This document shows, piece by piece, positions 8,918 through 39,024 of a stretch of 64,000 nt of DNA. The first letter of the stretch is position 1, and every line of letters begins with the position of its first letter. The stretch comes from an uncultured Acidobacteriaceae bacterium (GTDB lineage Bacteria; Acidobacteriota; Terriglobia; Terriglobales; Acidobacteriaceae). Under the pieces are notes generated by a model that saw nothing but the letters and a program-made list of their open reading frames with translations, did no database searches and was not told the origin of the DNA. The DNA is taken from contig CAVSWK010000024.1 in NCBI GenBank assembly GCA_963731525.1, positions 72,164 to 136,163 of the forward strand, in the 5' to 3' direction. The translations under genes and the position numbers were made by a program.

Positions 8918-8995
8918 CGCGAATGAGATACTCCCTGGAAATTAATCTTGCCGTTCTTCACTGGAAGTGGTGCATCTTCAAATCATCCGGCGGTT

Positions 8996-9118
8996 TCAAG
9001 ACATGGCGTACCCCGATGTCGTCTCTTTTTCGGCGTCGTCGTGCATCTGCTTGGCGACATATAGTAGGAGAACGCCAACTGCCACAAGACAGAGAACTCC
9101 CAGCAGGGTTATTTTCAT
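8996..9118 (-). CDS. 40-aa hydrophobic membrane peptide
   Basis: MKITLLGVLCLVAVGVLLLYVAKQMHDDAEKETTSGYAMS. RBS AGGAG lies 5-6 nt upstream. The ATG overlaps the stop of the zinc-ribbon gene (ATGA at 9115-9118). It is below the ORF-track length cutoff. Confidence 0.45.
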   Translation of the reverse strand: MKITLLGVLCLVAVGVLLLYVAKQMHDDAEKETTSGYAMS

Positions 9119-9498: not shown

Positions 9499-9503
9499 TC
9501 TCT

Positions 9504-9590
9504 ATTGTTAATATAATCTAACAATTGCAATTATTATGAATTGGCATCTTGGCACTTGTCAATATAAAAGAATAATCTTGCAATTGTTAA
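9504..9590. promoter_or_regulatory. AT-rich divergent promoter region with palindromic operator-like sites
   Basis: Palindrome ATTGTTA-N8-TAACAAT at 9504-9525. The 12-nt TAACAATTGCAA (9519-9530) recurs inverted as TTGCAATTGTTA (9578-9589). The region lies between the divergent zinc-ribbon and XRE genes. Confidence 0.55.
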
Positions 9591-9615
9591 TGTGCTGCCA
9601 TATCCTACAAACATT

Positions 9616-10014
9616 ATGGAAAACTTCGGGAGCTACATGCGCAGGGTGCGAAAATCGAAGGGTTTGACGCTTAAACAGGTCGAGATCCAGGCTAAAGTCT
9701 CCAATGCCTACATTTCCCAGATCGAGCGAGGGTTGAGAAAGCCTCCCCACCCCGACATCCTCAAAAGGTTAGCCAAAACATACGATGTTCCACACCGGGA
9801 GCTTTTGGTCGTTGCGGGCTACTTGGACGAAGACTCGCAGGCGGTTGCTGCGAAGAGAAAAATCGAAGAGGCGTTTGAGCATGTCCGGACTGATCCTACT
9901 TTTAAGCAAGGAACTCGCCTCAGAGGGACCCATGTCAGCCTTGAAACGAAGCGCTTTATCGTGGAAATGTACGAAAAGCTGACGCAGCGCAGCTTATTGA
10001 AAGAAGGAGCCTAA
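9616..10014 (+). CDS. XRE-family helix-turn-helix transcriptional regulator
   Basis: MRRVRKSKGLTLKQVEIQAKVSNAYISQIERGLRKP is a canonical Cro/C1 HTH. Start at ATG 9616. Confidence 0.85.
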   Translation: MENFGSYMRRVRKSKGLTLKQVEIQAKVSNAYISQIERGLRKPPHPDILKRLAKTYDVPHRELLVVAGYLDEDSQAVAAKRKIEEAFEHVRTDPTFKQGTRLRGTHVSLETKRFIVEMYEKLTQRSLLKEGA

Positions 10015-10020
10015 AACAGG

Positions 10021-10635
10021 TTGGAATTGTTAAACGGTGAAATCGACGCTTCTCCGATTGTGGGGTTCTGCAAGGCGGTAATTTCTCGCCATGCTGAGCA
10101 CTGGCCACCCACAGAACAAACACTGGCCGAGGAGTTTGTGCAATGGTTGGGTCTCAAGACCTTCTTGACCCGAGTTGAGCTAGTCGAACTGTGCGTATCC
10201 AAGAAGATCAATCTCTCATTCGCTGAACTGCCCTCCGAACTTCGTGGCTTCAACTGCTCATTTGAGAATAAGGCGGAAATTGTTATTGCCCAGCGTGAGA
10301 CGGTCCCCGGCGCTGATTTGCATACCCTTTTTCACGAGCTCCGAGAATTGCTCGAAAACGCTTTTGTTGAACATAGATATGCTACTTTGAGCGCGGACGA
10401 TTTATTGGAAGTACAAGCCGACGTTTTCGCAATGTCGGCACGCATGCAAGTTGTTATAAAGGAAATTCTTGCTTTTGTGGAGATTGTAAAGAATGCTAAC
10501 GCGAAATGGGCTCGCTACCTTGGTCTTGGCGTTATTGGTATTACCGGAATCATTTACCTGCTCAATTGTGTTTTCCTGCCGCGGCTCGAAGAAATAGAAT
10601 CTGAGGTGAAACGCCAGCGTTACGTACGTATGTAA
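10021..10635 (+). CDS. ImmA/IrrE-like (COG2856-type) domain protein with C-terminal TM helix, HExxE variant
   Basis: Sits immediately after the XRE gene. LFHELRELLEN occupies the position of the HExxH motif, and EVQADVFAMSARM resembles the downstream E..AN.FA motif. TM segment YLGLGVIGITGIIYLLNCVFL. TTG start. Confidence 0.45.
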   Translation: MELLNGEIDASPIVGFCKAVISRHAEHWPPTEQTLAEEFVQWLGLKTFLTRVELVELCVSKKINLSFAELPSELRGFNCSFENKAEIVIAQRETVPGADLHTLFHELRELLENAFVEHRYATLSADDLLEVQADVFAMSARMQVVIKEILAFVEIVKNANAKWARYLGLGVIGITGIIYLLNCVFLPRLEEIESEVKRQRYVRM

Positions 10636-10930
10636 CGTTGGCCCACCAAGTTCTTCTCGATGGCCAATGCGGAATCTCTTCACTCACCAGTGTGGTCATA
10701 GTTTTTCCGCTTGACACTGGCCATTAACTCGCCTATATTCCCCGGCAATCCTAGTAAGAGAGATTTTGATCTCAAGCGGTCTCTGAGACTTTCTTGGCGG
10801 GACTTCTTCCCTTCCACACGGGTGTTCACCCGTCTTTGTGCGCGAAGGACATGTCGCGTCCAAATTACTGCGCGTCGAAGGATGCGCTGCAATTTCTATA
10901 AATGCTTTCTCCGCACGCAAAAGGAAGATT

Positions 10931-11719
10931 ATGCAGATTCGCTTTCTCCGCCGTTTCCTGCCTTTCGTGTTTTTCCTCTACAGTTCGGTTTCTCTTTTCT
11001 CCCAGAACAAGACGCCGGTCCGCGATGACCATGCGCTGAAAATAGTGCAAACCGCGATAAACAATATGGGTGCGGCAAGCAGCGCGAGCGGCGTGCAGGA
11101 CTGCGTGCTTACCGGGATCAGCGTAGCGGATTCCAACCCTGACCTCCGCAAGGATTTTACTTGGACGATTGCGGGAGACGAGTTCCGTTTCGAAGTGAAA
11201 TCTGCGAAGGGAACAGGTCTCTTTGTTAGCGGTCATGGAAGTCCTGGACGGATGTCCAATGGAACGTTCTCCCGTATCAACTACCACGTGGCTCGCGCGA
11301 ATGTCCCATACTACTTGCCCGGCTTACTGTTGGCGCGAGAACTCGCCAATCCCAACTTCACAGTGAAATATGTTGGTGCGGTCACGACCGAGGGACGGCG
11401 AGCCGCGCATATTCATCTCGGTGACGGATCAGACAAAATCGCAGCCTTGGTGACGCCCCAGGAGTGGTACTTCGACCTCAATTCCGGATTGCCGCTGCGC
11501 GTCGAGTTTCACATTCCCACAAATGAAAACGCGGAGGATTTGTTTAACGGCGCCTACGAATTTTCAGATTTTCGTTCGGTCAGCGGCATGCTCGTACCTT
11601 TTCAAATCTCATTCTCGCAGGAACACCAGCCGCTCCGAGTGATCTCTTTCAATTCAGTGGCGTTCAACGTAGGAGTTTCGCCCTCGGTCTTCGACGTCCC
11701 GAAGGGGGTGGGTCAATGA
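10931..11719 (+). CDS. hypothetical secreted protein, translationally coupled to the RHS gene
   Basis: ATG 10931 with RBS AAGGAAG. Signal peptide FLPFVFFLYSSVSLFSQ. The stop overlaps the RHS start (ATGA at 11716-11719). Confidence 0.55.
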   Translation: MQIRFLRRFLPFVFFLYSSVSLFSQNKTPVRDDHALKIVQTAINNMGAASSASGVQDCVLTGISVADSNPDLRKDFTWTIAGDEFRFEVKSAKGTGLFVSGHGSPGRMSNGTFSRINYHVARANVPYYLPGLLLARELANPNFTVKYVGAVTTEGRRAAHIHLGDGSDKIAALVTPQEWYFDLNSGLPLRVEFHIPTNENAEDLFNGAYEFSDFRSVSGMLVPFQISFSQEHQPLRVISFNSVAFNVGVSPSVFDVPKGVGQ

Positions 11720-12787
11720 AACGTCACGCCATCAGAGTTTGCATGCTACTCGCTTTGTTTGTGTCCGGCTGTGCTGGTTGGTCGATGGCGCAGGACCAAG
11801 ACGACATTCGGCAAGGTATCAACGCCTATGGGACATACCGTGGCGGAGACATTGATTTGGTCAGCATGACGAACGGAAATGTGACTGTGCAAATTCCGCT
11901 AGTCTCTTATCCACAACGCGGCAAACTGAATCTCGGCTACAGGCTCGTGTACAACAATAAGATCTACGCGCAGAGAGTGATTTGCATTATCGATGAGTGC
12001 ACGACTTACGTTGGGCTCCGAAGTCTTTTTTCGCCTTTGGTTCCGGTCGCAGATGGCAGCTTTACTTCGAAATCGACCACCATCCAAGAAGTCGGTGGTA
12101 CTGGCACAGTGACCTTCGCCAGCTATTCCTTGGTTGCTGCCGATGGGGCCAGTCACCAATTGGCCGCGCTGTCTTCAGCGGGCACTAATTTTGAAACCGT
12201 CGATGGAACAGGGCTTTTCTCCTCCAGTGGGTATCTAACTGATGCGAACGGAACGCGAGTTTGGGAGGAAGACACTAACGGGAATCAAATTACCCAATTG
12301 TCTGGCACACTAACGGATACCGTGGGACGAAGTATCCCCAACCTGCCCGGCGGGACCAGCTCCAGCGGCGCCGGTGCATGTCCAAGCGGGCCACTACCGG
12401 TCTATTCCAACTCTTCGTGGGTGGTTCCGGGACCAAACGGCGGTACCTCAACGTTCGTATTCTGCTACGCGCAGGTCGATGTCGTCGAATCCTTTGACAT
12501 AACTGACGACACGCAAGTTTGGGGGTATTTGAACTTTCTCCAGAGTGTGGTCTTGCCCAATGGAACGGCCTGGACATTTCAATATAGTACCGATGGCTAT
12601 GGCGATCTGACGCAAATCACGTTTCCCACTGGGGGAACAATTTCCTACGTCTGGACAGAGGGCGCGACTTGTACGGTTGCTCTGCCCCCTCGATGGTTGG
12701 CTTCGCGTACTGTGAACGCAAATGATGGTACGGGAAACCATACCTGGACCTATTCATATGTTGGTGGGCCTACAACGGTTGCCGACC
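11716..12787 (+). pseudogene. RHS/YD-repeat lipoprotein, 5' fragment (interrupted by IS3-family element)
   Basis: Lipobox-like LFVSGC signal. The reading frame runs straight into the IS left end at 12788. Confidence 0.8.
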
Positions 12788-12847
12788 TGTCCCGCCTCAG
12801 CTGGAAATGGAGAAAGCGTTCGTCCGTTAAGATAGCGGAGCGAACGT

Positions 12848-13162
12848 ATGAGAAAAGAGCGCAAGCATTACACAGCTGAGGAGAAGGTGGCCATTCTGCG
12901 GCGCCATCTTTTAGACAAGGTCCCGGTTTCCGATCTGTGTGAAGAACTGGGCCTGCAGCCGACGGTGTTCTACCGCTGGCAAAAGGAGTTCTTCGAGAAC
13001 GGAGCGGCCGCCTTCCAAGCGACGGAACGTCCTCGCCGCCAGGCGGAGGAGAAGCAGAAACGGATTGAGTTCTTGGAGAAGAAGGTGCAGACCAAGGACG
13101 AGGTCCTGGCCGAGCTGATGGCGGAGCACATCGCGTTAAAAAAAAGCGTTGGGGAACTCTGA
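12848..13162 (+). CDS. IS3-family transposase OrfA (HTH)
   Basis: YTAEEKVAILRRHLLDKVPVSDLCEELGLQPTVFYRWQKEF is a typical IS3 OrfA. Confidence 0.9.
   Translation: MRKERKHYTAEEKVAILRRHLLDKVPVSDLCEELGLQPTVFYRWQKEFFENGAAAFQATERPRRQAEEKQKRIEFLEKKVQTKDEVLAELMAEHIALKKSVGEL
13138..13145 (+). promoter_or_regulatory. A8 slippery run, probable programmed -1 ribosomal frameshift site (OrfA-OrfB fusion)
   Basis: The A-run AAAAAAAA followed by G lies near the end of orfA. orfB is in the -1 frame relative to orfA (start positions mod 3 are 2 and 1). Confidence 0.7.
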
Positions 13163-13185
13163 CCGAGACCTGGGTACCACACGAT

Positions 13186-14205
13186 GTGCGGGATCAGGTG
13201 GTGGATTTCGTTCGGCGCTGGTCGGAGAAGACCGAGATCAGCGTCGGCCGATTTATTCATTGGCTGGGGGTGACCGTGAGCAAGTTTTACAACTGGGGGC
13301 AGCGCTATGGGCGAGTGAATGAGCACAACGGTTGGGTACCCCGCGATTTCTGGTTGGAGACGTGGGAGAAAGAAGCCATCATCGGCTTCCACGTGAACAA
13401 TCCGTTGGAAGGCTATCGGCGACTTACGTTCATGATGTTGGATCAGGATGTGGTGGCAGTGAGCCCGGCGAGCGTATGGCGTGTGCTGAAACAAGCGGGA
13501 TTACTGACGCGCTGGAAAGCGAAGCCGTCGCGCAAGGGCACTGGCTTCGAACAGCCGCTGCAGCCGCACCAGCACTGGCATGTGGATGTTTCCTATATCA
13601 ACCTGTCGGGTACGTTCTATTACTTATGCAGCGTGCTGGATGGATGCAGTCGTTTTCTGGTGCATTGGGATCTGCGGGAGTCGATGAAGGAAGCGGACAT
13701 CGAGAGGATTCTGGAACGAGCCAAGGAGAAGTACCCGGGAGCTAAGCCGCGGATCATCTCCGACAACGGACCGCAGTTCATCGCTCGGGACTTCAAGGAG
13801 TTCATTCGTATCTCCGGGATGACGCACGTGCGCACCTCGCCGTTTTACCCGCAGTCGAACGGAAAAATCGAACGCTGGCATAAGTCGCTCAAACGGGAGT
13901 GCATCCGGCCACTGACCCCGTTGACGCTGGAAGATGCGCGCCGCCTGATTCAAATCTACGTGGATCACTACAACACGGTGCGACTGCACAGCGCGATCGG
14001 CTATGTGACGCCGCAGGATCGGCTCGCCGGACGACAGGCCGAGATCCACGCGGCTCGCGATCGCAAGCTAGAGGAGGCGCGTAGACGACGGCAACTTCGC
14101 CGGCAGCAGACGGCGTCTTTAAGATTTGCACACTCTTCAACCGCAGCTACAATGACCTCGCCGGGTGAAACGGAAGCGGGCTCTGCCGGGAGGCAACCAT
14201 GCTGA
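13186..14205 (+). CDS. IS3-family transposase OrfB (DDE/rve integrase core)
   Basis: HWHVDVSYI..., ISDNGPQFIA, YPQSNGKIERWHKSLKRE, YNTVRLHSAIGYVTP are rve-domain motifs. Confidence 0.92.
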   Translation: MRDQVVDFVRRWSEKTEISVGRFIHWLGVTVSKFYNWGQRYGRVNEHNGWVPRDFWLETWEKEAIIGFHVNNPLEGYRRLTFMMLDQDVVAVSPASVWRVLKQAGLLTRWKAKPSRKGTGFEQPLQPHQHWHVDVSYINLSGTFYYLCSVLDGCSRFLVHWDLRESMKEADIERILERAKEKYPGAKPRIISDNGPQFIARDFKEFIRISGMTHVRTSPFYPQSNGKIERWHKSLKRECIRPLTPLTLEDARRLIQIYVDHYNTVRLHSAIGYVTPQDRLAGRQAEIHAARDRKLEEARRRRQLRRQQTASLRFAHSSTAATMTSPGETEAGSAGRQPC

Positions 14206-14399
14206 GGGATAACCTGGTGGGGCTCATCGAGCCGATGCTCAGCAGCGCGGGAGCCAATCCTCTCGCGCTCTGCATTGCGATGAACGAGTCATCGGACGAT
14301 AGACCCCAAGATGCCTTGAAAATCCCCGCCCCGAAGGGGCGGAATCTTACACTAACGGAGAACGCCGCTTCTCCATTTCACGCTGAGCCAAAACAGACC

Positions 14400-21768: not shown

Positions 21769-21994
21769 TTTAGTTTCAGTGATTTATGGGAAGACGCAGG
21801 TCGTCGCATACTGAGAATTACGGGCAATCAGAGTTTGCGGTGATAAAAACGTGAGCGCGATCGGTTACTGGGTCACGGGCTGATGTCACTGCTGCAGGGG
21901 CGATTCGCGGGGCTCTCGGTGGGCTCGGAAACCCACAGCAAGCCATTCCCGGTCGGCGTGTAGGCATTGAATCATTGAGCCACTTTCCAATGAT

Positions 21995-23596
21995 TCAATG
22001 ACTCGATTCAGGAAACTTAAAGTCAACGTTGATCCGGATTAGGTTCTTCACCGGTTTTCCATCAAGCTCATAGGGTTTGTACCGCCAGTGCTGCACTGCG
22101 TCCACGGCGGGCTGGGCAAGCAAAGGCTCGCCCTCGATAACTCTGACATCGCGCAACGTTCCATCCTCCATGATCACTGCGGCCAGAACGACCTTGCCCT
22201 CCAGGCGCAGCAGACGGGCCTGGGCAGGATAGACTGGCGGAACGCGGTGCACGAGCTGGCCGCCCGAAATCCCGCGCGACACCGGCACACCGAGCCCGGG
22301 CAACGAAACTTTCGTGGAGAGAACTTCGTTGAGAGCGGACTGATTCGTCGAGCCGGCGGAGATCGAGGGCGGCTCGGTCGAGGCGGTCTCATCCGAGCGC
22401 GAATCGGTGGAGCGCGAGGCGTTGTGCGATCCAATCTGCGCGCGGGGAACCTCGTGCGTGACGGTGAAATCGGCACCAACGTCCGTCGCAGTTTTCTCTC
22501 CCGAGACTACGTCCACTTTTGAGGCGAACTTCACGGGAGTTCCGGCTGAAGTCTTTCCGCTGGATGGAAACAGGGATTCGCCACCCGGATTCGCCTTCCA
22601 GAGTGGGTCATTATCGGGAGGATGTTTGTCGGGAGAATGTGCGGTTACGGCGTTGACGGTTGTGGTGCCGACAGAAGACGGCTTCGCCGCATGCGCCTTG
22701 CCATCCGCTTTATCCGGACCTCGCCACCCAAGCCAGATCACCAGGGCAAGCAGCGAGATCGCCACGAGGCCGATGGCGCCCAAAGCAAACGGTCGCGATC
22801 GAGTTCCCAGGAAAGCGAGAGCCACGTCCCTGACACCATCCGACACCGGTAGCAGGCTGGAGGATTGCGGCGTCGCCACCGGAAAGGTCGGCGCGGCGGA
22901 CGATGCGCCATGCGGTTGCGATGCGCGTGCGCGTTCCGCGAGCTCTGCCAGTTGTTGAAGAAGAGCAAGATGCTGTTTGCTGAAGGCTGCGGGCTGGGTG
23001 GAAAAAGCTTCGAGAATTCCGTTGATCTCGCGCCGACCCTGAATCGGCAAGACGGCAATCGAGCGCAAACCGAGGCTGCGGCAGACTTCCACATCGACGA
23101 GCGGATCATTCTCGGTATCTGCGCAATGCTGAATTTTACCGGTGCGCAAACACTCCCCCGAGATTCCAGTCTCCGCACCCAACTGCGCACCGAGAGCGGG
23201 AGCCGTGTCGCCACTGCGCGCGCGGCACACCATCGCGCCTTCCTTCCACATCACAAGTGCGGCTCCGGAGGCGCCCGTCAGTTGTCGGGCGGCGTCTGTG
23301 ATGGTCGCCAGTATCGGGTCCAGGCGGTGGCCCCCGGCTGCGATCAGCTCCTTCAGGGGCGACAGGGCAGCGCTCTCGTCAAAGTTGCCGGACCGACTGG
23401 AGGAAGTTTCCGGCGAAGAATCGCGGGCAAAAGCACTGAGTATTTTCCCGGAGCGAAGCGGCTTTGGTTGAGGCACAACCACAGGTCTCTCTCGGTCGGT
23501 AAATTGCCGGACAAAACCAGTAGAACACAAGCGAAGCGCGCGATTTTGCCGAAGTATGAGCCAACTCCGCGCGCCTGTCAAGACAACGCTCCACAT
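21995..23596 (-). CDS. GAF domain - TM - TonB C-terminal domain protein
   Basis: GAF-like region (HCADTENDPLVDVEVCRSLGLRSIAVLPIQGRREINGILEAFS), TM helix FALGAIGLVAISLLALVIWLGW, C-terminal PPVYPAQARLLRLEGKVVLAAVI...YKPYELDGKPV (TonB_C). Start uncertain. Confidence 0.75.
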   Translation of the reverse strand: MWSVVLTGARSWLILRQNRALRLCSTGFVRQFTDRERPVVVPQPKPLRSGKILSAFARDSSPETSSSRSGNFDESAALSPLKELIAAGGHRLDPILATITDAARQLTGASGAALVMWKEGAMVCRARSGDTAPALGAQLGAETGISGECLRTGKIQHCADTENDPLVDVEVCRSLGLRSIAVLPIQGRREINGILEAFSTQPAAFSKQHLALLQQLAELAERARASQPHGASSAAPTFPVATPQSSSLLPVSDGVRDVALAFLGTRSRPFALGAIGLVAISLLALVIWLGWRGPDKADGKAHAAKPSSVGTTTVNAVTAHSPDKHPPDNDPLWKANPGGESLFPSSGKTSAGTPVKFASKVDVVSGEKTATDVGADFTVTHEVPRAQIGSHNASRSTDSRSDETASTEPPSISAGSTNQSALNEVLSTKVSLPGLGVPVSRGISGGQLVHRVPPVYPAQARLLRLEGKVVLAAVIMEDGTLRDVRVIEGEPLLAQPAVDAVQHWRYKPYELDGKPVKNLIRINVDFKFPESSH

Positions 23597-23661
23597 GCCA
23601 GCAGCACTCTCGGCACTATTTTTCTGCCTTGTTTCCAGTCCTTGAAGTGTTTCAGCTTAAG

Positions 23662-24311
23662 TAGGCCTGCCCCTCAATTATGCTCACGGCCCCGAGCGTC
23701 GTGGGCGTTTCATGGAAATCCCTTCATCATGCGACTGCTGCTTTCGTCGGTCCCTCTGATCGCTTCGACTTTCGCCGGTTGCGGGTTCTTCTTGTCGGGA
23801 GCGGGCTTGACCCCGTGAACGCTGACCCCTTGCTCCAACTGGGTCATGAGAGTTCGGAGGTTCTCGTCGCCGGCATACAGGAGCTTGCGCATTTCCGCGC
23901 TGGCCCTCAGGGCTTCCTCATACGCGCCCCGAGCTTTGGCAAGAAGCGGAAGGTGTGCAGTCAACGCACTAGCGTTCTTGGTGCACTCGTTCACCGCTTC
24001 TGTGTACGTCTTCATGGTTGGTGGCAACAATGGCTGGTTATCATCTTCGGCAAGAACCTTCTGAGGACCAACTGCGAAATTCCCTTTTTCGTCCCGGTTG
24101 TGTTTTAACGACTCAATCAGCACGGCGCCGACGGACTCCAAGTCCGGCATCTGCGAGGCGAACTCGGGCTGCGCGCCCACAGCATCATCGTGATTTTTCC
24201 ACATTCGCTTCACTCCTTTACATCTTCACTACTCCTGACCGGACGGCGGGAGGTGTGCATTATGTACTGGTTGGCAAGAAGAGTCAAACTTCACGCGCTG
24301 ACGGGGTGCTT
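23662..24311 (-). repeat. ~650-bp segmental duplication, copy 1 (small gene plus its upstream region)
   Basis: About 90% identical by eye to 26829-27463, including the 5' leader and RBS region. Confidence 0.8.
23710..24213 (-). CDS. hypothetical protein (paralog 1), first gene of the GAF-TonB_C operon
   Basis: 167 aa, starting MKRMWKNHDDAVGAQPEF. Long stretches are identical to the 162-aa ORF at 26876-27364. Confidence 0.6.
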   Translation of the reverse strand: MKRMWKNHDDAVGAQPEFASQMPDLESVGAVLIESLKHNRDEKGNFAVGPQKVLAEDDNQPLLPPTMKTYTEAVNECTKNASALTAHLPLLAKARGAYEEALRASAEMRKLLYAGDENLRTLMTQLEQGVSVHGVKPAPDKKNPQPAKVEAIRGTDESSSRMMKGFP

Positions 24312-24468
24312 TCTCGCGCTGCAACCGCGGCGCCAACGAGTGGACCGCCGACGGCGTTAGCACAAGCTTGTGCAATCTGTTCGCCCTTTGATGAGGTCAA
24401 TGAGTGAAATCGGGATGTTTCGCCAACTGTGAAGCGCATTGTCGAATTACTGCTTTCGCGGTTGCACA

Positions 24469-26700
24469 CTATCGTCGCGCGCTCGCGACCTTGATGCCGT
24501 GGGAGCTAGCGGCATAGCGTGCAATGCCTTTGTACAGCGCTTCGGCGACCTGTTCGCGGTAGCCATCGCTGCGCAACTTCTGCTCGTCTGTGGGACTGCT
24601 GACGAACGAAACTTCCGCCAGGATCCCCGGCATCGCGCTTTCCGTCAGCACTACGAAGGTAGCTTCCCTGATGCCGCGGTCGCGCAGACCCGGATTCTGC
24701 GCCGACAGTGTCCCGTACAGGGAGCGCTGCACACTCTCCGCCAGCCTTCTCGACTGCTCAACCCGCCCTTGCAAATCGGCAGGCGAAAGCGATGCTGTCG
24801 CCGCATTCCTGCCGCCTGAGCCTGGCCGCATATCCACATCTTTCGAATCCGGCACCATGAAGAAGCTTGTGTAGTACGTTTCCACCCCGCGCGCCGAAGG
24901 AAGATCGCTGTAGTTGGCGTGCACGGAAACGAATAGATCGGCCTGCGCCTGATTGGCAATACTGGCGCGCTCGGCCAGAGGAACATAGCTGTCATCCTGT
25001 CGCGTGTAGATTACCTCCATTCCCAATCGACCTTCGAGCAACTTGCCCAGCCGCTGCCCAATCTCGAGCACCAGATCTTTTTCGAACAAGCCGTCGCGCC
25101 CCACCGCGCCCCCGTCTCGACCACCGTGGCCCGCATCGACCACGATGCACATCTTGGCAACACGCCGCTGCAGTTGCAAATCTTCCTGCGTCGGCGGCGG
25201 AACCACGATTAATAGTTTGTTTTTCTCCGCTTCGGTCGCATTCGGGGACCGATTCACCGTGCTCTTGGGGCTCGCCCCGAGGTTGCGCACTTCAACCACC
25301 AGCCGGTAGGGATTCGGCTCCAGGCTCACCGAGAAATCTGTGTTGGCCTTCGTCTCCAGCACAATGCGCGTCATGCCGGTCCCGGGCTGAGCCACGCGGA
25401 TGCGTTGGAGCAGTGCATCGCCCACCTCGATTGATTTCCATGCAAGGTTGGAAGCCGGCTCTGTATCGTGCAGATCGAAATAGATGCGATCGGGATTGGC
25501 CAGGCGGTGCACTTCATACTGCACCTGATCTTCAAGATTAAGAACCACCGTACTCGAATCCGCCGCCGACCAGTGCTGGATTCCGGTGACCATGGGAAAC
25601 CTCGACAATTCCTGCGGCTTGGCAGGTGAATCAGTCGCCTGGCTTCCATTGAAAGTCGTGCCCGAATTGATGTTGGCGGGATTCGCTGCCGTCCCTGCGA
25701 ATGGAGCGGCCGGCGCGTCCTTCGCCGCGGCGCCCATCAGCTTCGGCGCCATCTTTTCCGTTCGCGCCGTCTGGTTGGCCAACTGCGACGGTTTCAGCTT
25801 CCACCAGGCTCCTCCCACTAACGCTGAGACAATGACAATGCACACCAGCAGAACCGGCATGCCAGGCCGGCGAGTCACGCTATCCGGTGCCTCGGCTGGC
25901 ATCTCGGGTTCAGCGACGGGCACGGCTTCTGGCTCGCTCAGAGCCGCTTCCAACTTCGTTGCCGCGACCTGCGCGGACTCTGCAAAGCGATCCTCATCCT
26001 CCGGCGTGAGCGCTCCCATCACTAATTCAGCCAGCAAGCCCAGGTTGCGGACATCTCTGTCGTTGAATCCGAACGGTAGCGCTGAAAACGCCTGCAGCAA
26101 CCCAATCCCACGCCTCCGCCCGCACAGCGGCACCGCGACCATGGAGCGTGCGCCCAAGCGCCTGCACGCCTGCAAGTTGACCCGTGCATCCGTCTCGGTG
26201 TCAGCGCAGCTCAGGATCTGGGCCGTGCGGAAGCAGGCCCCGGAGAAAGACGAATCGCGGTCGATGCGCGCGCCCAAGTTGGGCCGGACCGTTCCCGCCG
26301 CCGCCTGCAAAACAATCTCGTTGTTTTCCGCCATCGCAATCGCCAGGCCATCCGCGCCAGTGATCGCTACTGCTATGTCGGCGACGAGTTGAAGTACCTC
26401 ATCCAGAGTGAACTGCTCTCCCTCTTCAAGCTCCGCCTCGGGAACAGCCGCATCGTCCCCGGTCCGGCGAGTTTCTTTCCTCCGGCGCGCCTGCTCGTTC
26501 AGCGCCAAGAACGCCAGTAACGCCTGCAACGTGTTGCGATGCGATGGTTGTTGCGTGGAATCCGCAGGATCTGTGGTGGAGTTCGAAGCGGTCTGCCCGG
26601 GCGAGCAGAGAGGTACTACAACTCCGGCAGAAGAAGTCTGCCCTTCAAGGCTCGGGTTGGTGGTCGCTGTCGCCATTCCTAGCCCAAGTGCACAATTCAA
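24469..26700 (-). CDS. GAF domain - TM - AMIN - N-acetylmuramoyl-L-alanine amidase (AmiC-like)
   Basis: GAF-like region paralogous to 21995-23596 (SCADTETDARVNLQACRRLGARSMVAVPLCGRRRGIGLLQAFS). TM helix VLLVCIVIVSALVGGAWW. AMIN-like block (RIYFDL...RIRVAQ). Amidase_3 motifs (IVVDAGHGGRDGGA, FVSVHAN). Confidence 0.8.
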   Translation of the reverse strand: MNCALGLGMATATTNPSLEGQTSSAGVVVPLCSPGQTASNSTTDPADSTQQPSHRNTLQALLAFLALNEQARRRKETRRTGDDAAVPEAELEEGEQFTLDEVLQLVADIAVAITGADGLAIAMAENNEIVLQAAAGTVRPNLGARIDRDSSFSGACFRTAQILSCADTETDARVNLQACRRLGARSMVAVPLCGRRRGIGLLQAFSALPFGFNDRDVRNLGLLAELVMGALTPEDEDRFAESAQVAATKLEAALSEPEAVPVAEPEMPAEAPDSVTRRPGMPVLLVCIVIVSALVGGAWWKLKPSQLANQTARTEKMAPKLMGAAAKDAPAAPFAGTAANPANINSGTTFNGSQATDSPAKPQELSRFPMVTGIQHWSAADSSTVVLNLEDQVQYEVHRLANPDRIYFDLHDTEPASNLAWKSIEVGDALLQRIRVAQPGTGMTRIVLETKANTDFSVSLEPNPYRLVVEVRNLGASPKSTVNRSPNATEAEKNKLLIVVPPPTQEDLQLQRRVAKMCIVVDAGHGGRDGGAVGRDGLFEKDLVLEIGQRLGKLLEGRLGMEVIYTRQDDSYVPLAERASIANQAQADLFVSVHANYSDLPSARGVETYYTSFFMVPDSKDVDMRPGSGGRNAATASLSPADLQGRVEQSRRLAESVQRSLYGTLSAQNPGLRDRGIREATFVVLTESAMPGILAEVSFVSSPTDEQKLRSDGYREQVAEALYKGIARYAASSHGIKVASARR

Positions 26701-26828
26701 AGCAATATGTACACCAGTAAAATGATCCTCAATTAGTCACTCAGGCTACTGCATCTGGTGAACTGCGTCAGCTAGGAACGGTCTTTCCCCCGACTCCTGC
26801 GGCAGCGTAAGCCGAACGTGACGCGATA

Positions 26829-27463
26829 TAGGCCTGCCCCTCAATTATGCTCACGGCCCCGAGCGTCCTGGGCTTTCATGGAAATATATTCGCACGACCT
26901 CCGCCTTCGGCGGTCGCTCTCATTCTTTCGACTTTCGCCGGTTCAGGGCTTTTCTTGTCGGGAGCGAGCTTGCCTGGTTGAATGCTCACCCCTTGCTCCA
27001 ACTGGGTCATGAGAGTTCGAAGGTTCTCGTCGCCGGCATCCAGGAGCTTGCGCATTTCCGCGCTGGCCCTCAGGGCTTCCTCATACGCGCTCCGAGCTTT
27101 GGCAAGAAGCGGAAGGTGTGCAGTCAACGCACTAGCGTTCTTGGTGCACTCGTTCACCGCTTCTGTGTACGTCTTCATGGTTGGTGGCAACAATGGCTGG
27201 TTATGATCTTCGGCAAGAACCTTCTGGGGAACAATAGCGGAATTCCCTTTCTTGAAAGACTCAACGAGCGCGTCGCCGAGCGACGCCAAGTCCGATCTCT
27301 GCTTCGAGGCGAAATCGGGCTGCGCGCCCACAGCATCATCCTGATTTTTCCACATTCGCTTCACTCCTTTACATCTTCACTACTCCTGACGGGACGACGG
27401 GAGGTGTGCATTATGTACTGGTTGGCCAAGAAGAGTCAAACTTCAGGCCCTGACGGGGTGCTT
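26829..27463 (-). repeat. ~635-bp segmental duplication, copy 2
   Basis: See 23662-24311. Confidence 0.8.
26876..27364 (-). CDS. hypothetical protein (paralog 2), first gene of the GAF-amidase operon
   Basis: 162 aa, a paralog of 23710-24213. Confidence 0.6.
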   Translation of the reverse strand: MKRMWKNQDDAVGAQPDFASKQRSDLASLGDALVESFKKGNSAIVPQKVLAEDHNQPLLPPTMKTYTEAVNECTKNASALTAHLPLLAKARSAYEEALRASAEMRKLLDAGDENLRTLMTQLEQGVSIQPGKLAPDKKSPEPAKVERMRATAEGGGRANIFP

Positions 27464-27507
27464 CCCTTTTGATTGACATTGCTTGCCTGGCTGGAATAAG
27501 TGATGCT

Positions 27508-27670
27508 AACAGGCGTGGCTGTTGAAAAACTCCGTTTCCGCTCCAAACAAGCAAAATTTGGGGGGTAGAAAATGTCTAGGCGACCCGAGGAAGTCGCTTG
27601 TAGGGCTTCCTGACGCGATTTCATTTTTGCGAATTTCGCGGGAAGGAGTTTTTCAACAGCCACGCCTGTT
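27508..27670. repeat. MITE-like element: perfect 26-nt terminal inverted repeats around a 111-nt core
   Basis: AACAGGCGTGGCTGTTGAAAAACTCC at 27508-27533. Its exact reverse complement is at 27645-27670. Confidence 0.7.
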
Positions 27671-27718
27671 TTGAACAACTGACCGAAACAGATGCCGTCA
27701 TGAGCTAAACTCATTCAC

Positions 27719-28063
27719 GTGAAAAAGTCACCAGTTGCTTCCACGAGGCGGTACCATCACATCGGAATTCCCACTACCGAGCGTCGAGAAGGTGAACGCC
27801 TGATCGAGCGCTATGCGACGTTCGTGTCTGGATATGAAACGAGCACCTACGGGATCGAGTGGATGCGGTTCGAACGTGAAGCGCCGGTCCCTGAACTTGT
27901 GCGTACTGTTCCGCATGTCGCCTTCGAAGTGGACGACCTCTCCGCTGAAATCGCCGGAAAAGAGATACTTATTGCGCCCAACTCACCCTCACCGGGCGTG
28001 ACCGTCGCTTTTATTGTCGAGAATGGAGCCCCAGTCGAGTTTCTCCAGTTTGATAAGAAGTGA
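27719..28063 (+). CDS. small VOC/glyoxalase-fold-like protein
   Basis: YHHIGIPT...PHVAFEVDD pattern resembles vicinal-oxygen-chelate fold proteins. GTG start. Confidence 0.45.
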   Translation: MKKSPVASTRRYHHIGIPTTERREGERLIERYATFVSGYETSTYGIEWMRFEREAPVPELVRTVPHVAFEVDDLSAEIAGKEILIAPNSPSPGVTVAFIVENGAPVEFLQFDKK

Positions 28064-28364: not shown

Positions 28365-28608
28365 CCCACTGCCCCATTGTTGACGAAATATCGTTTACAC
28401 TCGCAATCCCCGCCTGACCATCCCCCTGTCCTTTAGTCCGAACTCAGAGAACACTTTCGATTAGAGCCGCCGCTCTGATCTGGTGCTATTTTCGATTCGA
28501 AAAGGAGATTGCATAATGCTCAGCCAGCCCTCCCCCCTTTTGTATTTTTGTCCCGCCTCAGCTGGAAATGGAGAAAGCGTTCGTCCGTTAAGATAGCGGA
28601 GCGAACGT

Positions 28609-28923
28609 ATGAGAAAAGAGCGCAAGCATTACACAGCTGAGGAGAAGGTGGCCATTCTGCGGCGCCATCTTTTAGACAAGGTCCCGGTTTCCGATCTGTG
28701 TGAAGAACTGGGCCTGCAGCCGACGGTGTTCTACCGCTGGCAAAAGGAGTTCTTCGAGAACGGAGCGGCCGCCTTCCAAGCGACGGAACGTCCTCGCCGC
28801 CAGGCGGAGGAGAAGCAGAAACGGATTGAGTTCTTGGAGAAGAAGGTGCAGACCAAGGACGAGGTCCTGGCCGAGCTGATGGCGGAGCACATCGCGTTAA
28901 AAAAAAGCGTTGGGGAACTCTGA
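28609..28923 (+). CDS. IS3-family transposase OrfA
   Basis: Identical to 12848-13162. Confidence 0.9.
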   Translation: MRKERKHYTAEEKVAILRRHLLDKVPVSDLCEELGLQPTVFYRWQKEFFENGAAAFQATERPRRQAEEKQKRIEFLEKKVQTKDEVLAELMAEHIALKKSVGEL

Positions 28924-28946
28924 CCGAGACCTGGGTACCACACGAT

Positions 28947-29966
28947 GTGCGGGATCAGGTGGTGGATTTCGTTCGGCGCTGGTCGGAGAAGACCGAGATC
29001 AGCGTCGGCCGATTTATTCATTGGCTGGGGGTGACCGTGAGCAAGTTTTACAACTGGGGGCAGCGCTATGGGCGAGTGAATGAGCACAACGGTTGGGTAC
29101 CCCGCGATTTCTGGTTGGAGACGTGGGAGAAAGAAGCCATCATCGGCTTCCACGTGAACAATCCGTTGGAAGGCTATCGGCGACTTACGTTCATGATGTT
29201 GGATCAGGATGTGGTGGCAGTGAGCCCGGCGAGCGTATGGCGTGTGCTGAAACAAGCGGGATTACTGACGCGCTGGAAAGCGAAGCCGTCGCGCAAGGGC
29301 ACTGGCTTCGAACAGCCGCTGCAGCCGCACCAGCACTGGCATGTGGATGTTTCCTATATCAACCTGTCGGGTACGTTCTATTACTTATGCAGCGTGCTGG
29401 ATGGATGCAGTCGTTTTCTGGTGCATTGGGATCTGCGGGAGTCGATGAAGGAAGCGGACATCGAGAGGATTCTGGAACGAGCCAAGGAGAAGTACCCGGG
29501 AGCTAAGCCGCGGATCATCTCCGACAACGGACCGCAGTTCATCGCTCGGGACTTCAAGGAGTTCATTCGTATCTCCGGGATGACGCACGTGCGCACCTCG
29601 CCGTTTTACCCGCAGTCGAACGGAAAAATCGAACGCTGGCATAAGTCGCTCAAACGGGAGTGCATCCGGCCACTGACCCCGTTGACGCTGGAAGATGCGC
29701 GCCGCCTGATTCAAATCTACGTGGATCACTACAACACGGTGCGACTGCACAGCGCGATCGGCTATGTGACGCCGCAGGATCGGCTCGCCGGACGACAGGC
29801 CGAGATCCACGCGGCTCGCGATCGCAAGCTAGAGGAGGCGCGTAGACGACGGCAACTTCGCCGGCAGCAGACGGCGTCTTTAAGATTTGCACACTCTTCA
29901 ACCGCAGCTACAATGACCTCGCCGGGTGAAACGGAAGCGGGCTCTGCCGGGAGGCAACCATGCTGA
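28947..29966 (+). CDS. IS3-family transposase OrfB
   Basis: Identical to 13186-14205. Confidence 0.92.
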   Translation: MRDQVVDFVRRWSEKTEISVGRFIHWLGVTVSKFYNWGQRYGRVNEHNGWVPRDFWLETWEKEAIIGFHVNNPLEGYRRLTFMMLDQDVVAVSPASVWRVLKQAGLLTRWKAKPSRKGTGFEQPLQPHQHWHVDVSYINLSGTFYYLCSVLDGCSRFLVHWDLRESMKEADIERILERAKEKYPGAKPRIISDNGPQFIARDFKEFIRISGMTHVRTSPFYPQSNGKIERWHKSLKRECIRPLTPLTLEDARRLIQIYVDHYNTVRLHSAIGYVTPQDRLAGRQAEIHAARDRKLEEARRRRQLRRQQTASLRFAHSSTAATMTSPGETEAGSAGRQPC

Positions 29967-30446
29967 GGGATAACCTGGTGGGGCTCATCGAGCCGATGCT
30001 CAGCAGCGCGGGAGCCAATCCTCTCGCGCTCTGCATTGCGATGAACGAGTCATCGGACGATAGACCCCAAGATGCCTTGAAAATCCCCGCCCCGAAGGGG
30101 CGGAATCTTACACTAACGGAGAACGCCGCTTCTCCATTTCACGCTGAGCCAAAACATTTGCGGTGCCCCGTGTGCCCTGGAAACCCCGTTCGAGGTCTGG
30201 GGATCAAGCGACAGGATGCCACGCAAGGAACCAAGCTAAACGTCCTTGCGGCTACGTGCGGACATTCCTGGATGCTTTCAGATGGCACTGCCATGGCAAT
30301 CAGGAAGGGCCTCGCAGCAGATAGGCGCATAATCTCGGCGTTCCTGGACGCCATCTGATGGTTGAGTTTTCGCTTGCGAACGCCGATCTGTACCGAGCTT
30401 CAGAGGAGCGCCTCAGGAACGCATTGATGTTGGGGACAACCCGCCA

Positions 30447-30914: not shown

Positions 30915-31084
30915 TCATTTCTCGTCTGTACTTCGCGGCGAAAAGGAACAACTCCAGAGTTGTCGCAACCAGGCGTCTCTAATAATGTCGGCAGTGTCAA
31001 GCAATTACACGCAATATAAAAAGGCGCCCACTTTGCGGTAGGTTGTGATTGTTGGGATCACCACTTACCAAAAGGAGCGCCGTT

Positions 31085-32157
31085 ATGAAGCAAGAAAAGT
31101 ATATTGGCATGGACGTTCACCAAGCAACGATCTCGGTTGCCGTCATGGATTCCAATGGCAAGCTGATCATGGAATGCATCCTGGAGACGAAGGCGGCCAC
31201 GATTCTGGAGTTCATCGATGGGCTACGCGGAAGTCTATCGGTGACCTTTGAAGAGGGAACTTCTGCCGCCTGGTTGCATGATCTGCTGAAACCTCATGTC
31301 ACCCATCTTGTGGTCTGCGATCCAAGGAAGAACGCCCTGCTGAAAGACGGCAGCAAGAGTGACCGGATCGATGCGCGCAAGCTGGCCGAGTTGTTACGCG
31401 GCAACCAGCTCCATTCGGTGTACCACGGAGAGCACGGGGTGCGCACCTTAAAGGAGTTGGGTCGCAGCTATCAAACGCTCACGAAAGATATCACTCGAGT
31501 CATGAGTCGGATCAAAGCGCTGTACCGCAGCTGGGCGATTCCCTGTAGCGGAGCCACGGTCTATGCCCCGCGACATCGCGCCGAGTGGTTGGCTAAGATC
31601 CCGCAACCCGGAGTTCGTCTGCGGGCCGAACGGTTGTATCAGCAACTGGATCTATTGCAACCGGTGCGCCAGGAAGCGCGACGCGACCTGCTGCGAGAGA
31701 GCCGCCAACATCATGTCGTGAAATTGCTGCGTCAGGTTCCCTCGATCGGTCCCATTCGTGCCGCCTTGCTAGTGGCGCTGCTGCAGACACCCCACCGTTT
31801 CCGTACCAAGCGTCAGCTGTGGGCTTACAGTGGTTTCGCGATCGAGACTCACGACAGCGGCGAGTACCGCTATGTCAGAGGGAAGCTACGACGAAACCGG
31901 GAGCGCATCACCGTGCGGGGACTGAATGACAACCATAATCATGATCTGAAGAACCTGTTCAAAGGCGCTGCTCTCTCTGCGAGTACTCGCCCCGGACCGC
32001 TGTACGATTTCTATGGTGCCCTCCTGGAGAAGGGGATGCGTCCAACCATGGCCCGTCTCACCCTGGCACGGCACGAAAGATTGCCGCGATCACTTTAACC
32101 ATTTGGAAGAAAGGAGCAAGTTTCGACGCCAAACAATTGCATCGGCAAGCCGCTTGA
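31085..32157 (+). pseudogene. IS110-family transposase, frameshifted by a 5-nt tandem duplication
   Basis: N-terminal YIGMDVHQATISVAV (DEDD family). GCACG GCACG at 32066-32075 shifts the frame. Removing one copy restores the typical C-terminus LARKIAAITLTIWKKGASFDAKQL. Confidence 0.8.
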
Positions 32158-37520: not shown

Positions 37521-38258
37521 TTATTGCGCTTTCATCCAGGTATCCGAGCCTGTCAGCTTAACTGCTACGTCTGAAATGAAGATGTGCAGGGGCTTGCCAT
37601 CGGCGGTGCCGCGGTGCTCCGTTGAGATCAGGAGAGGACCGGCCTTCTTGTAGCCCGCCCAGGTTGCGTTGACGAGGCTCGGCTTCTCGGTCCCGCCGTG
37701 GTGGAAGACAAGGTACTCGACGCGGTTGTCTTTGCCGACGTAGAGTTCCCAGGTGTCGCCGGGCGTGTAGCCGCCGACCTCCGGGGCATACTTCACTGCG
37801 ACCAGCTCGGCCGAGCCACTGCCAACCGGCAGTTTATGCATACCTTCGTCGGTCACGGTGGCGCTGGTGTCCCAGTAAGCATGGAGCGGGAACAGAAGCC
37901 AATAGTTATCGTTGGTGAAGCCCCGATCGATTTCATTTTTCACGTTGTCGGGCTGGCTGCTGAGCTCGGAGCGCATGTAGGTAACCTTGACCGGCTTGCC
38001 GTCTTTATCCTTCCCCTCGTAGGAGACCTTGCCGGTTTTGGGCTCCCACTCCCACGTGCGAGAAAGTTTGAAGAGCCCGGTAATTTCCCCGTTCCAGGTG
38101 TAGCGTATCGCCTCGATTTGTCCAAACGAATCGAGACCATAGGTCTTGGCGACCTGATCGAGAATTGGCGGGCGATTCTGCGCCCACGAGGTTGCAGCAA
38201 GGACAAGCACAGCGAAAGCCAGAAATCGGAACATCGTTGCACGGCTCGCATTTGTCAT
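37521..38258 (-). CDS. hypothetical secreted protein (paralog of 42199-42954)
   Basis: Signal peptide FRFLAFAVLVLAATSWAQ. About 85% identity to the other copy. Confidence 0.6.
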   Translation of the reverse strand: MTNASRATMFRFLAFAVLVLAATSWAQNRPPILDQVAKTYGLDSFGQIEAIRYTWNGEITGLFKLSRTWEWEPKTGKVSYEGKDKDGKPVKVTYMRSELSSQPDNVKNEIDRGFTNDNYWLLFPLHAYWDTSATVTDEGMHKLPVGSGSAELVAVKYAPEVGGYTPGDTWELYVGKDNRVEYLVFHHGGTEKPSLVNATWAGYKKAGPLLISTEHRGTADGKPLHIFISDVAVKLTGSDTWMKAQ

Positions 38259-38376
38259 AGAGTTCGCTCCTCGGTGAATTGAACGGATGCTTTCTTGGAT
38301 GACGGGCAAAGGCTTCCGGATACAGAAGTCGACCGCGCACACCGCCGCCGAAAGCACGCTAATGATGGAATTAGTA

Positions 38377-39024
38377 TTACGCACTGATTCCTGAGGTTTC
38401 GAGAGAAGAGATCAAATCAACGACTTCATTTGTGGTCACAATGGCACTGGCGTAGTTCGGGATATTGACGTCGAGAGCGGCGTGCATTTCCTCATCCGAG
38501 TAATCCGTGGTCGCGTCTTTTACCATTGTGACCTCGTAGCCAAGCTCAGCGGCATAACGAACCGTTGCCTCCACACACGTGTGTGCGATCAGTCCCATGA
38601 CGATGAGCTGATGGATGCCATGTTTCTTGAGTTGCAAATCCAAATCCGTATTGGCGAAACCACTGGAACCCCAATGCTCGAGCGCCACGATTTCGCCCGG
38701 TTGAGGTTTGAACTCGCTGCGAACCTCGCCACCCCAGGTGCCGTATTCGAACGTCTTGTGCAACCACGCTGCCTTCTGGATGGGCGCAATGTACTTCCAA
38801 GTCTCGTAGTCGCCTGGACGGTATCGACGATGCAGCGCATAGAAAACGCGAAGCTCCGCCTTCCGCGCAGCATTCAGGACTTGCAGCATATGAGGAATAC
38901 AATCATTTGCTTCTGCAACCGTCTTCAAGCGACCCCATACTTTGCCTCCCTCGGAAATGAAATCGTTGTACGGGTCGATGACGAGAAGTGCAGTGATCTC
39001 TTTGTCATACTTCAGATTTGCCAT
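38377..39024 (-). CDS. isochorismatase-family cysteine hydrolase
   Basis: ALLVIDPYNDF...LIVMGLIAHTCVE motifs. Confidence 0.8.
   Translation of the reverse strand: MANLKYDKEITALLVIDPYNDFISEGGKVWGRLKTVAEANDCIPHMLQVLNAARKAELRVFYALHRRYRPGDYETWKYIAPIQKAAWLHKTFEYGTWGGEVRSEFKPQPGEIVALEHWGSSGFANTDLDLQLKKHGIHQLIVMGLIAHTCVEATVRYAAELGYEVTMVKDATTDYSDEEMHAALDVNIPNYASAIVTTNEVVDLISSLETSGISA

Follow-up and report, generated by a model that had tools for sequence, protein, structure and literature searches.

Paired small genes and GAF-anchored envelope proteins in an uncultured Acidobacteriaceae bacterium

The DNA analysed here is a stretch of 64,000 nucleotides (hereafter the window) from contig CAVSWK010000024.1 of an uncultured Acidobacteriaceae bacterium (assembly GCA_963731525.1, positions 72,164 to 136,163). 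Between its positions 21,995 and 27,463 it carries, on the minus strand, two units in which a small gene of an orphan family precedes a gene for a membrane protein with a GAF domain and a single transmembrane (TM) helix; one of these membrane proteins ends in AMIN and Amidase_3 domains and the other in a TonB_C domain. The layout is real and uncharacterised, while a dedicated small-protein/GAF system is not established. We tentatively prefer the interpretation that these are independent GAF-anchored envelope proteins which, in one lineage, were secondarily coupled to a small-protein cassette by transcriptional read-through, and possibly also by binding to the GAF domain. The order on the minus strand is small gene 2, the GAF-amidase gene, small gene 1, the GAF-TonB_C gene and an FG-GAP repeat gene. 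The same four-gene array together with the FG-GAP gene was present in three other metagenome assemblies (L120-L122), which derive from peat and soil samples, and is stable across the four.

The Terriglobia are abundant in soil and have almost no cell-envelope genetics. In hundreds of their proteins a GAF domain on the cytoplasmic side is connected by one TM helix to a module of the AMIN, AMIN-amidase or TonB_C kind, and no description of the GAF-TM-AMIN or GAF-TM-TonB_C architecture was found in the literature searched. The small-gene cassette is a separate puzzle, being orphan and multi-copy with strongly conserved non-coding flanks.

Two families of GAF-anchored proteins

The two membrane proteins and their parts are the following.

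24469..26676, minus strand: GAF-TM-AMIN-Amidase_3 protein, 735 aa (Pfam, AmiC alignment)
26008-26409, 25801-25860, 25300-25581 and 24520-25146, minus strand: GAF, TM helix, AMIN and Amidase_3 of this protein, respectively (Pfam)
24727-24867, minus strand: insertion at the position of the AmiC regulatory helix (alignment to 4BIN)
21995..23482, minus strand: GAF-TM-TonB_C protein, ~495 aa, GTG start (Pfam, AlphaFold, fold matches in the PDB)
22928-23323, 22724-22789 and 22016-22240, minus strand: GAF, TM helix and TonB_C of this protein, respectively (Pfam, AlphaFold)

In neither case is the likely start that of the longest open reading frame (ORF); the amidase gene probably begins at ATG 26676 (735 aa) and the GAF-TonB_C gene at GTG 23482 (495 aa). 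An earlier note on this DNA, made from the letters alone, had assigned both N-terminal regions to the GAF domain, and this assignment proved to be genuine. Pfam GAF, GAF_2 and GAF_3 scored above their cut-offs in both proteins, with 57.3 bits (E=2.6e-15) in the TonB-type protein and 46.3 bits (E=6.3e-12) in the amidase protein for GAF_2 (PF13185, cut-off 28.6), and 54 and 40.5 bits, respectively, for GAF (PF01590, cut-off 22.4). In Foldseek comparisons the modelled GAF domain of the TonB-type protein matched solved GAF domains with target-normalised template modelling scores of 0.72-0.82. The C-terminal modules were equally well recognised: TonB_C (PF03544) reached 64.3 bits (E=1.4e-17, cut-off 24.6) and TIGR01352 38.7 bits against a cut-off of 27.1, while AMIN (43.4 bits, E=3.8e-11) and Amidase_3 (169.3 bits, E=1.1e-49) were both above the Pfam cut-offs in the amidase protein.

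The GAF regions are 35% identical to each other (E=5e-28) and one hydrophobic helix follows the GAF domain in each protein, which bears out the earlier description of two paralogous proteins with different periplasmic ends. The shared GAF motif quoted there was roughly right, but the two proteins differ in the 'RV' and in the precise 'RS...VP' spacing. Both proteins lack a signal peptide; the GAF domains must accordingly lie in the cytoplasm and the C-terminal modules in the periplasm.

In the AlphaFold model of the TonB-type protein the GAF domain (residues 36-188) and the TonB_C domain (405-490) were both confident, with a predicted local distance difference test score (pLDDT) of about 90, and the TM helix was placed at residues 230-253. 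The GAF-to-TM linker (192-218, ~27 residues) is of low complexity with pLDDT below 50, and the TM-to-TonB_C linker (257-403, ~147 residues) is a low-complexity segment rich in Ser, Thr, Ala and Val with pLDDT of 29-44; Ser, Thr, Ala and Pro are prominent in the two linkers taken together. A Pro/Glu/Ala-rich segment separates the GAF domain from the TM helix in the amidase protein. In the GAF domain, cysteines are conserved in the family (C86, C111, C120, C134). A conserved periplasmic motif, DP.W..NPGGE.LF.S.GK.SAG.PVKFA.KVD, is shared by the whole GAF-TM-TonB family, a short distance past the TM helix (22400-22560 in the window, residues ~292-325 of the 495-aa protein); it is found also in members of ~390 aa in which no TonB_C domain is detectable.

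Both architectures form large families of varied genomic context, with 182 matches for GAF-TM-TonB_C and 638 for GAF-TM-AMIN. Most relatives of the N-terminal 315 residues of the amidase protein are GAF-TM-AMIN proteins of ~470 aa without Amidase_3. Of these, the nearest complete one is P0392, which matches residues 1-471 at 86% identity and ends two residues further on. At its locus (L117, 6400-6600) an indel of 1 nt makes a stop codon, giving a product of 476 aa, and homology to the linker continues for 63 codons past the stop before the deletion that removes the catalytic domain. The indel and the remnant linker indicate that the amidase was lost in the L117 lineage and not gained in the window, so that at least one GAF-TM-AMIN relative without amidase seems to descend from the amidase-bearing form. 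In view of this loss, the 'swapped output' of the earlier note is better read as two separate and widespread families, GAF-TM-TonB_C and GAF-TM-AMIN (the latter with or without amidase), which have a paralogous GAF-TM module in common.

The small-gene cassette and the promoters

The elements of the duplicated head and the promoter-like sites of the GAF genes are listed here.

26829..27463, minus strand: head copy 2, with upstream element, promoter, leader, coding sequence and 3' tail (repeat families D1, D2, D4-D6 and pairwise alignment)
23662..24311, minus strand: head copy 1, the small-gene cassette (repeat families, pairwise alignment, identity profile)
27410..27439, minus strand: sigma-70-like promoter of small gene 2, TTGACT-18 nt-CATAAT (10/12 in the promoter scan; kept at many other loci)
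24259..24287, minus strand: sigma-70-like promoter of small gene 1, TTGACT-17 nt-CATAAT (10/12 matches in the promoter scan; conserved elsewhere)
26876..27355, minus strand: small protein 2, 159 aa, orphan coiled-coil family (ATG after AAGGAG; called at 159 aa in L120-L122)
23710..24204, minus strand: small protein 1, 164 aa (homologue alignment, AlphaFold model)
26829..26858, minus strand: 3' tail of cassette 2 (GGCCGTGAGCATAATTGAGGGGCAGGCCTA), no terminator hairpin after it (cross-locus comparison)
23662..23691, minus strand: 3' tail of cassette 1, no terminator hairpin after it (cross-locus comparison)
26704..26732, minus strand: own promoter-like site of the GAF-amidase gene, TTGAGG-17 nt-CATATT (homology to TTGACT-17-CATACT in L117 and L118)
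23553..23581, minus strand: own promoter-like site of the GAF-TonB_C gene, TTGACA-17 nt-CATACT (promoter scan and conservation)

The head of ~640 bp that the two units were said to share is real. In the repeat families and the pairwise alignment, 23662-24311 and 26829-27463 appeared as direct repeats of 92-100% identity, aligning in blocks at 92-96%; the similarity is far above chance and breaks off sharply at both edges. The identity is distributed as a mosaic. It is about 97% in the upstream element, the promoter, the leader of ~50 nt and the first codons, 50-80% with in-frame indels in the N-terminal coding part, 72-90% in the C-terminal coding part and about 85% in the 3' tail of 48 nt past the stop codon, while in a coding core of 200 nt (24053-23854) 196 of the 200 bases are identical, synonymous sites included. 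On a neighbour-joining tree the two small genes of the window pair with each other and not with their own orthologues. The almost identical core, the mosaic flanks and this pairing point to homogenisation of the two copies by gene conversion.

The mechanical ORFs of the small genes are 23710-24213 (167 aa) and 26876-27364 (162 aa), and the lengths given in the earlier note agree with them. The true start is nevertheless three codons later, at an ATG (MWKN/MWKK) 7 nt past AAGGAG, as judged from the alignment of 30 homologues and in agreement with gene calls in other assemblies, so that the proteins have 164 and 159 aa. The statement that the small protein has no assignable family was upheld: neither copy matches Pfam or NCBIfam, a Pfam search with 30 family members gave no family, and a profile of the family found only coiled-coil noise among the PDB sequences (Nuf2, FlgN, FliT; E >= 0.03). 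The label 'exonuclease VII small subunit', attached to a few members at JGI, is backed by no profile. Small protein 1 was modelled as one helix of 63 residues (70-132) with pLDDT above 90 and a weak helix at 25-42, the remainder being of low confidence; the N-terminal third is acidic and the C-terminal tail is basic, ending in Phe/Trp-Pro. At least 342 relatives were found, and a profile search of 1.84 billion representative proteins retrieved only 185 clusters (50% identity). The genome matches were, in 22 of 23 cases, metagenome-assembled genomes of Terriglobia (Sulfotelmatobacter, Acidoferrum, Acidiferrales, Terriglobales), one being labelled Deferrimicrobiaceae. By its sequence relatives, then, the small gene is a multi-copy family nearly confined to the Terriglobia; it is probably highly expressed.

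The promoter with the leader (TTGACTCTTCTTGGCCAAC..CATAATGCACACCTGCCGCC) and the 3' tail (GGCCGTGAGCATAATTGAGGGGCAGGCC) are conserved as DNA across paralogues with only 60-70% protein identity, e.g. at L041 (3160-3290), L054, L058 and L071, which have unrelated neighbours. These non-coding flanks are more strongly conserved than parts of the coding sequence of the small gene. The leader and the 3' tail fold no better than shuffled sequence (z = 0.08 and -0.18), and the Rfam scan of 21800-27800 gave no match. A resemblance of the tail (GTGAGCATAAT) to the XerC arm of E. coli dif was dropped as a post-hoc half-site match without support.

A terminator-like hairpin follows the tail in 13 of the 17 tail-bearing copies that are not linked to a GAF gene and in none of the five linked copies. 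In the unlinked paralogue at L041 this hairpin folds better than shuffled sequence (z = -2.7), and the duplication in the window stops exactly between the tail and the place where unlinked copies carry the hairpin. From the stop of each small gene to the promoter-like site of the GAF gene there are about 130-145 nt on the same strand, and no terminator was predicted between the small and the GAF genes. Read-through from the strong small-gene promoter into the GAF gene is therefore plausible from the layout. It would matter more in the relative at L001, where the amidase gene has lost the -35 element of its own promoter by a deletion.

Homology to four loci without the small gene (L033, L114, L115 and L116), which encode GAF-TM-TonB_C proteins 60-83% identical to that of the window, starts exactly at the promoter-like site 23553-23581 and runs through a leader of ~85 nt into the coding region; the hexamers TTGACA and CATACT are invariant there and most of the spacer is conserved. 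Similarly, homology of the amidase gene to L117 and L118, which are also without the small gene, starts about 90 nt before ATG 26676 and includes the promoter-like site. Since these sites are conserved at loci without the small gene, both GAF genes appear to have brought their own promoters. The term 'operons' used in the earlier note is consequently only partly appropriate: the common strand and the lack of a predicted terminator speak for it, while the conserved internal promoter-like sites, and a co-occurrence which is not obligatory (6 of 43 clusters, see below), speak against it.

Linkage of the small gene to GAF genes and its explanation

The linkage was surveyed at 23 species-representative genome loci, 80 metagenome loci and further loci from exact-protein look-up. 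GAF genes were detected with a hidden Markov model built from the two GAF domains of the window, and the small proteins were clustered at 90% identity, which left 43 informative clusters. At other loci, too, the small gene occurs immediately before a GAF gene, in line with the earlier note. A GAF gene of the window's subfamily lies directly downstream on the same strand, at 57-204 nt, in the window (twice), in L001-4, L044, L056, L120 and L122 (amidase type), in L035 (TonB type), and in L039, L048, L007-9, L060 and L068. At L018 a GAF-TonB_C gene adjoins the small gene in divergent orientation, this being the sole linked locus where it is not directly downstream. GAF genes are the largest recurrent neighbour family of the small gene. 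They come in four architectures, namely TM-TonB_C, TM-AMIN-amidase, a GAF protein of 369 aa without TM helix, and zinc-ribbon...GAF, and the GAF domain is the sole feature common to the linked neighbours. Strict co-occurrence was rejected, as no GAF gene was present within 6 kb at 22 of the 23 species-representative genome loci; unlinked small genes have PEPCK, glucokinase, TonB-dependent receptor, TetR and FtsK-like genes as neighbours. The small gene was missing, in turn, from all eight GAF contexts inspected elsewhere (five GAF-TM-TonB_C and three GAF-TM-AMIN). These eight and the clusters without a GAF neighbour (37 of the 43 informative ones) weaken the idea of a partner protein.

According to the interpretation which we prefer, the GAF-TM proteins would be bitopic inner-membrane proteins of the Terriglobia, composed of a cytoplasmic GAF domain, a flexible linker, the TM helix, a second flexible linker and a periplasmic envelope module. 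The GAF domain would serve as a cytoplasmic handle for docking, oligomerisation or a ligand, which sets the place or the clustered state of the periplasmic module without being an allosteric gate. The cassette would consist of a strong sigma-70 promoter, the leader, the protein of 159-164 aa (one long helix with disordered tails) and the 3' tail, and in the lineage of the window a copy without the hairpin would stand directly upstream of each GAF gene. It would supply read-through transcription, and the small helical protein would probably dock on the GAF domain; such docking is proposed because this domain is the only feature which all the linked neighbours share. As far as the structural models can tell, a tether-and-recruit arrangement of this kind would fit better than allosteric gating. 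Functional coupling in any form, as opposed to mere juxtaposition, we put at somewhat below an even chance. The stronger version is unlikely: in it the small orphan protein would be an adaptor devoted to GAF binding and, by docking on the GAF handle, would control the placement, clustering or stability of the AmiC-type amidase, the peptidoglycan-binding AMIN and the TonB_C modules; if true, it would mean a previously unknown, FtsEX-independent route coupling the cytoplasm of Acidobacteria to cell-wall cleavage and outer-membrane contacts.

Several points weigh against the preferred interpretation. Only 6 of the 43 informative clusters of the small gene are linked to a GAF gene, and 37 are unlinked. 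The linked small genes fall on the neighbour-joining tree into one tight clade and two other positions, so there may have been as few as one to three independent linkage events, which would make the enrichment weaker than the raw counts suggest. The promoter and terminator calls are consensus matches only, and the low pLDDT of the linkers is a proxy for disorder, not measured disorder. Finally, the conserved non-coding flanks of the cassette may indicate different biology.

The alternative of mere juxtaposition is only slightly less probable. On this view the small gene would be independent, present in many copies, strongly expressed and unrelated in function, and the small+GAF unit would have been duplicated in a recombination-prone region rich in insertion sequences (IS), with the cassette as promoter donor at most. 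Such juxtaposition would account for the fact that most small genes adjoin unrelated genes and yet keep the promoter and the tail, for the promoters retained by the GAF genes and the absence of the small gene from the inspected GAF-TM loci elsewhere, for the position of most linked small genes in one clade, and for the mobile elements of the neighbourhood (identical IS3 copies on both sides, an IS110 element and an integrase nearby). However, the linkage recurs with four GAF architectures, once in divergent orientation, with GAF as the only common denominator, and no other neighbour family is as recurrent. The loss of the terminator is specific to the linked copies, and the pairs are retained across diverged populations.

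The earlier note had proposed inside-out signalling, in which the small protein modulates a ligand-sensing GAF domain and this domain acts as an allosteric gate on a periplasmic effector. The topology on which it was founded is real, the effector being periplasmic and the GAF domain cytoplasmic; in its fold this domain resembles GAF domains that bind ligands, such as cAMP-bound Lcd1 and fRMsr, and the insertion at the place where AmiC has its autoinhibitory helix suggests that the amidase is probably regulated. Since long low-complexity linkers of low confidence (192-218 and 257-403 in the TonB-type protein, ~27 and ~147 residues) flank a single TM helix, with no signalling helix or second TM helix, rigid transmembrane gating is nevertheless unlikely. 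Furthermore, the TonB_C and AMIN modules carry no activity that could be gated, many relatives keep GAF-TM-AMIN after losing the amidase, and most family members do without the small gene. Altogether this model is improbable.

Even less probable is a lysis-control pair resembling a toxin-antitoxin system, in which a potentially lytic GAF-amidase would be neutralised by the small protein wrapping its GAF domain, as in SpoIISA/SpoIISB. SpoIISA is indeed a membrane protein with a cytoplasmic GAF-like domain which is bound by the small disordered SpoIISB (PMC3057836), and the amidase is present in 3/3 of the GAF-AMIN genes linked to the small gene and in 0/3 of the unlinked ones inspected, although this correlation may represent a single phylogenetic contrast. 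Against this, no sequence similarity to SpoIISA was detected, one TM helix follows the GAF domain here while three precede the GAF-like domain in SpoIISA, and the gene order is reversed with a promoter of its own for each gene; the small gene is also linked to non-lytic proteins, of the TonB_C type and soluble GAF. The least probable alternative is outside-in sensing, by which the periplasmic TonB_C or AMIN module would detect the state of the envelope (the TonB box of a receptor, septal peptidoglycan) and report it via the GAF domain and the small protein: bitopic proteins with a periplasmic sensor and a cytoplasmic partner-binding domain are generally known to be common, e.g. the anti-sigma factors, but the GAF domain has no known output activity here, the unit encodes no transcription factor, and the flexible linkers speak against signal transmission.

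Some further arrangements were seen at the loci of the relatives. L007, L060 and L068 contain a tandem array (e.g. L007 6001-8548) of a small protein of 193 aa with an insertion of 29 aa, the 369-aa GAF protein without TM helix, and then a second small paralogue with an internally duplicated N-terminal segment. Outside the lineage of the window (L033, L115, L116 and the context of P0175) the GAF-TM-TonB_C gene is divergent from a gene encoding GAF and HD-GYP domains (motif HHERVDGSGYP), and a GT2 / Glyco_transf_21 gene lies beside it. Cytochrome c7-like genes are found upstream of the GAF-TonB_C gene at L114 and of the GAF-AMIN gene at L118. These neighbours may hint at a link with cyclic di-GMP signalling; the GAF domain of the HD-GYP gene at these loci has no similarity to that of the TonB-type protein.

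In the window two identical copies of an IS3-family element of 1608 bp (12788-14395 and 28549-30156) stand on either side of the array. They are 100% identical, in direct orientation, with orfA (HTH_Tnp_1), orfB (rve) and TG...CA ends, and enclose an RHS-repeat gene, the FG-GAP gene and both small+GAF units. A composite transposon was rejected: the flanking duplications are unequal (GACC/GACC and TTTT/TTTG), therefore the copies look like separate insertions and not like one composite event. A tyrosine integrase gene (7524-8657) and an IS110-family transposase gene (31049-32098) are also present, and the GC content drops to 0.51-0.53 at 8000-12000, compared with ~0.58, where several ORFs have no Pfam match. 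The neighbourhood of the array looks island-like, and the plasticity of the region is in keeping with duplication and gene conversion.

An ORF of 114 aa without Pfam match (27719-28063, plus strand) is divergent from small gene 2 and is kept in the same position in L120 and L121. Farther away, tandem repeats of ~325 nt, 64-86% identical, occupy 54071-55929, partly inside an ORF of 904 aa (54807-57521) with weak Big_1 / Invasin_D3 matches, the product of which is probably a repetitive Ig-like surface protein. Two paralogous minus-strand genes, 37521-38384 and 42199-43050, encode proteins of 287 and 283 aa; they lie 4.7 kb apart, are about 84% identical as DNA and have no Pfam match.

Comparison with known systems

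The AMIN and Amidase_3 part of the amidase protein aligns in one stretch to residues 21-395 of E. coli AmiC (4BIN), and the positions of the catalytic motifs GHGG, E (EKD) and H (SVHAN) are aligned. The insertion at the position of the regulatory helix has 47 residues; AmiC, AmiA and AmiB align to the protein without a break, whereas helix-less amidases split there. On the other hand, AmiC is a soluble protein exported by a signal peptide, in place of which the amidase protein has about 270 cytoplasmic residues with the GAF domain and a TM anchor, and it scores 135 bits on the NCBIfam AmiC model, the cut-off of which is 700. In FtsEX-EnvC, the activity of peptidoglycan amidases in the periplasm is governed, at division, by an event in the cytoplasm. 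The concept of cytoplasmic control over a periplasmic amidase is common to both, but FtsEX-EnvC consists of an ABC-transporter-like complex and a LytM activator, neither of which is encoded in the window, while in the window the amidase and the cytoplasmic domain form one polypeptide. Should the GAF handle place or regulate an amidase of the division type, this would offer another solution beside the FtsEX-EnvC and NlpD logic of the Proteobacteria.

The TonB-type protein resembles TonB in being an N-in bitopic protein with a C-terminal TonB_C domain, and its VYPAQARLLRLEG resembles the YP region of E. coli TonB. The TM anchor of TonB couples to ExbBD via Ser-x3-His (S16/H20 in E. coli). The TM segment of the TonB-type protein, FALGAIGLVAISLLALVIWLGW, contains no His and sits after a cytoplasmic region of ~230 residues, and the periplasmic spacer is rich in Ser, Thr and Ala in place of the Pro-rich rod. 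Neither exbB nor exbD turned up in the window's annotated ORFs or at the inspected loci of relatives; linkage of TonB genes to exbBD is not universal. With a TM helix lacking His, no Pro-rich rod and no exbBD detected in those ORFs, the protein was not classed as a TonB energy transducer. No description of a GAF domain on a TonB-type protein was found in the literature searched. Two TonB-like proteins are precedents for the tether-and-recruit arrangement: GltJ of M. xanthus (GltJ/GltG) brings in partners and steers assembly by means of cytoplasmic domains attached through flexible linkers (PMC11135422), and SjdR of Anabaena acts on septal peptidoglycan structure and not on uptake (PMC8262864).

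For the proposed contact of the small protein with the GAF domain, the closest analogies are SpoIISA-SpoIISB of B. subtilis and PDE6 with P-gamma. The small, natively disordered SpoIISB binds the cytoplasmic GAF-like domain of the membrane protein SpoIISA, the activity of which damages the envelope, with nanomolar affinity (PMC3057836). Structures of PDE6 with P-gamma were among the Foldseek matches of the TonB-type GAF domain. No SpoIISA chain appeared among the PDB sequence matches, and the profile of the small protein likewise revealed no relationship in the PDB. Both systems differ from the units of the window in topology, gene order and transcription layout; what they would have in common with them, by analogy, is a small, largely disordered or helical protein which binds a GAF domain.

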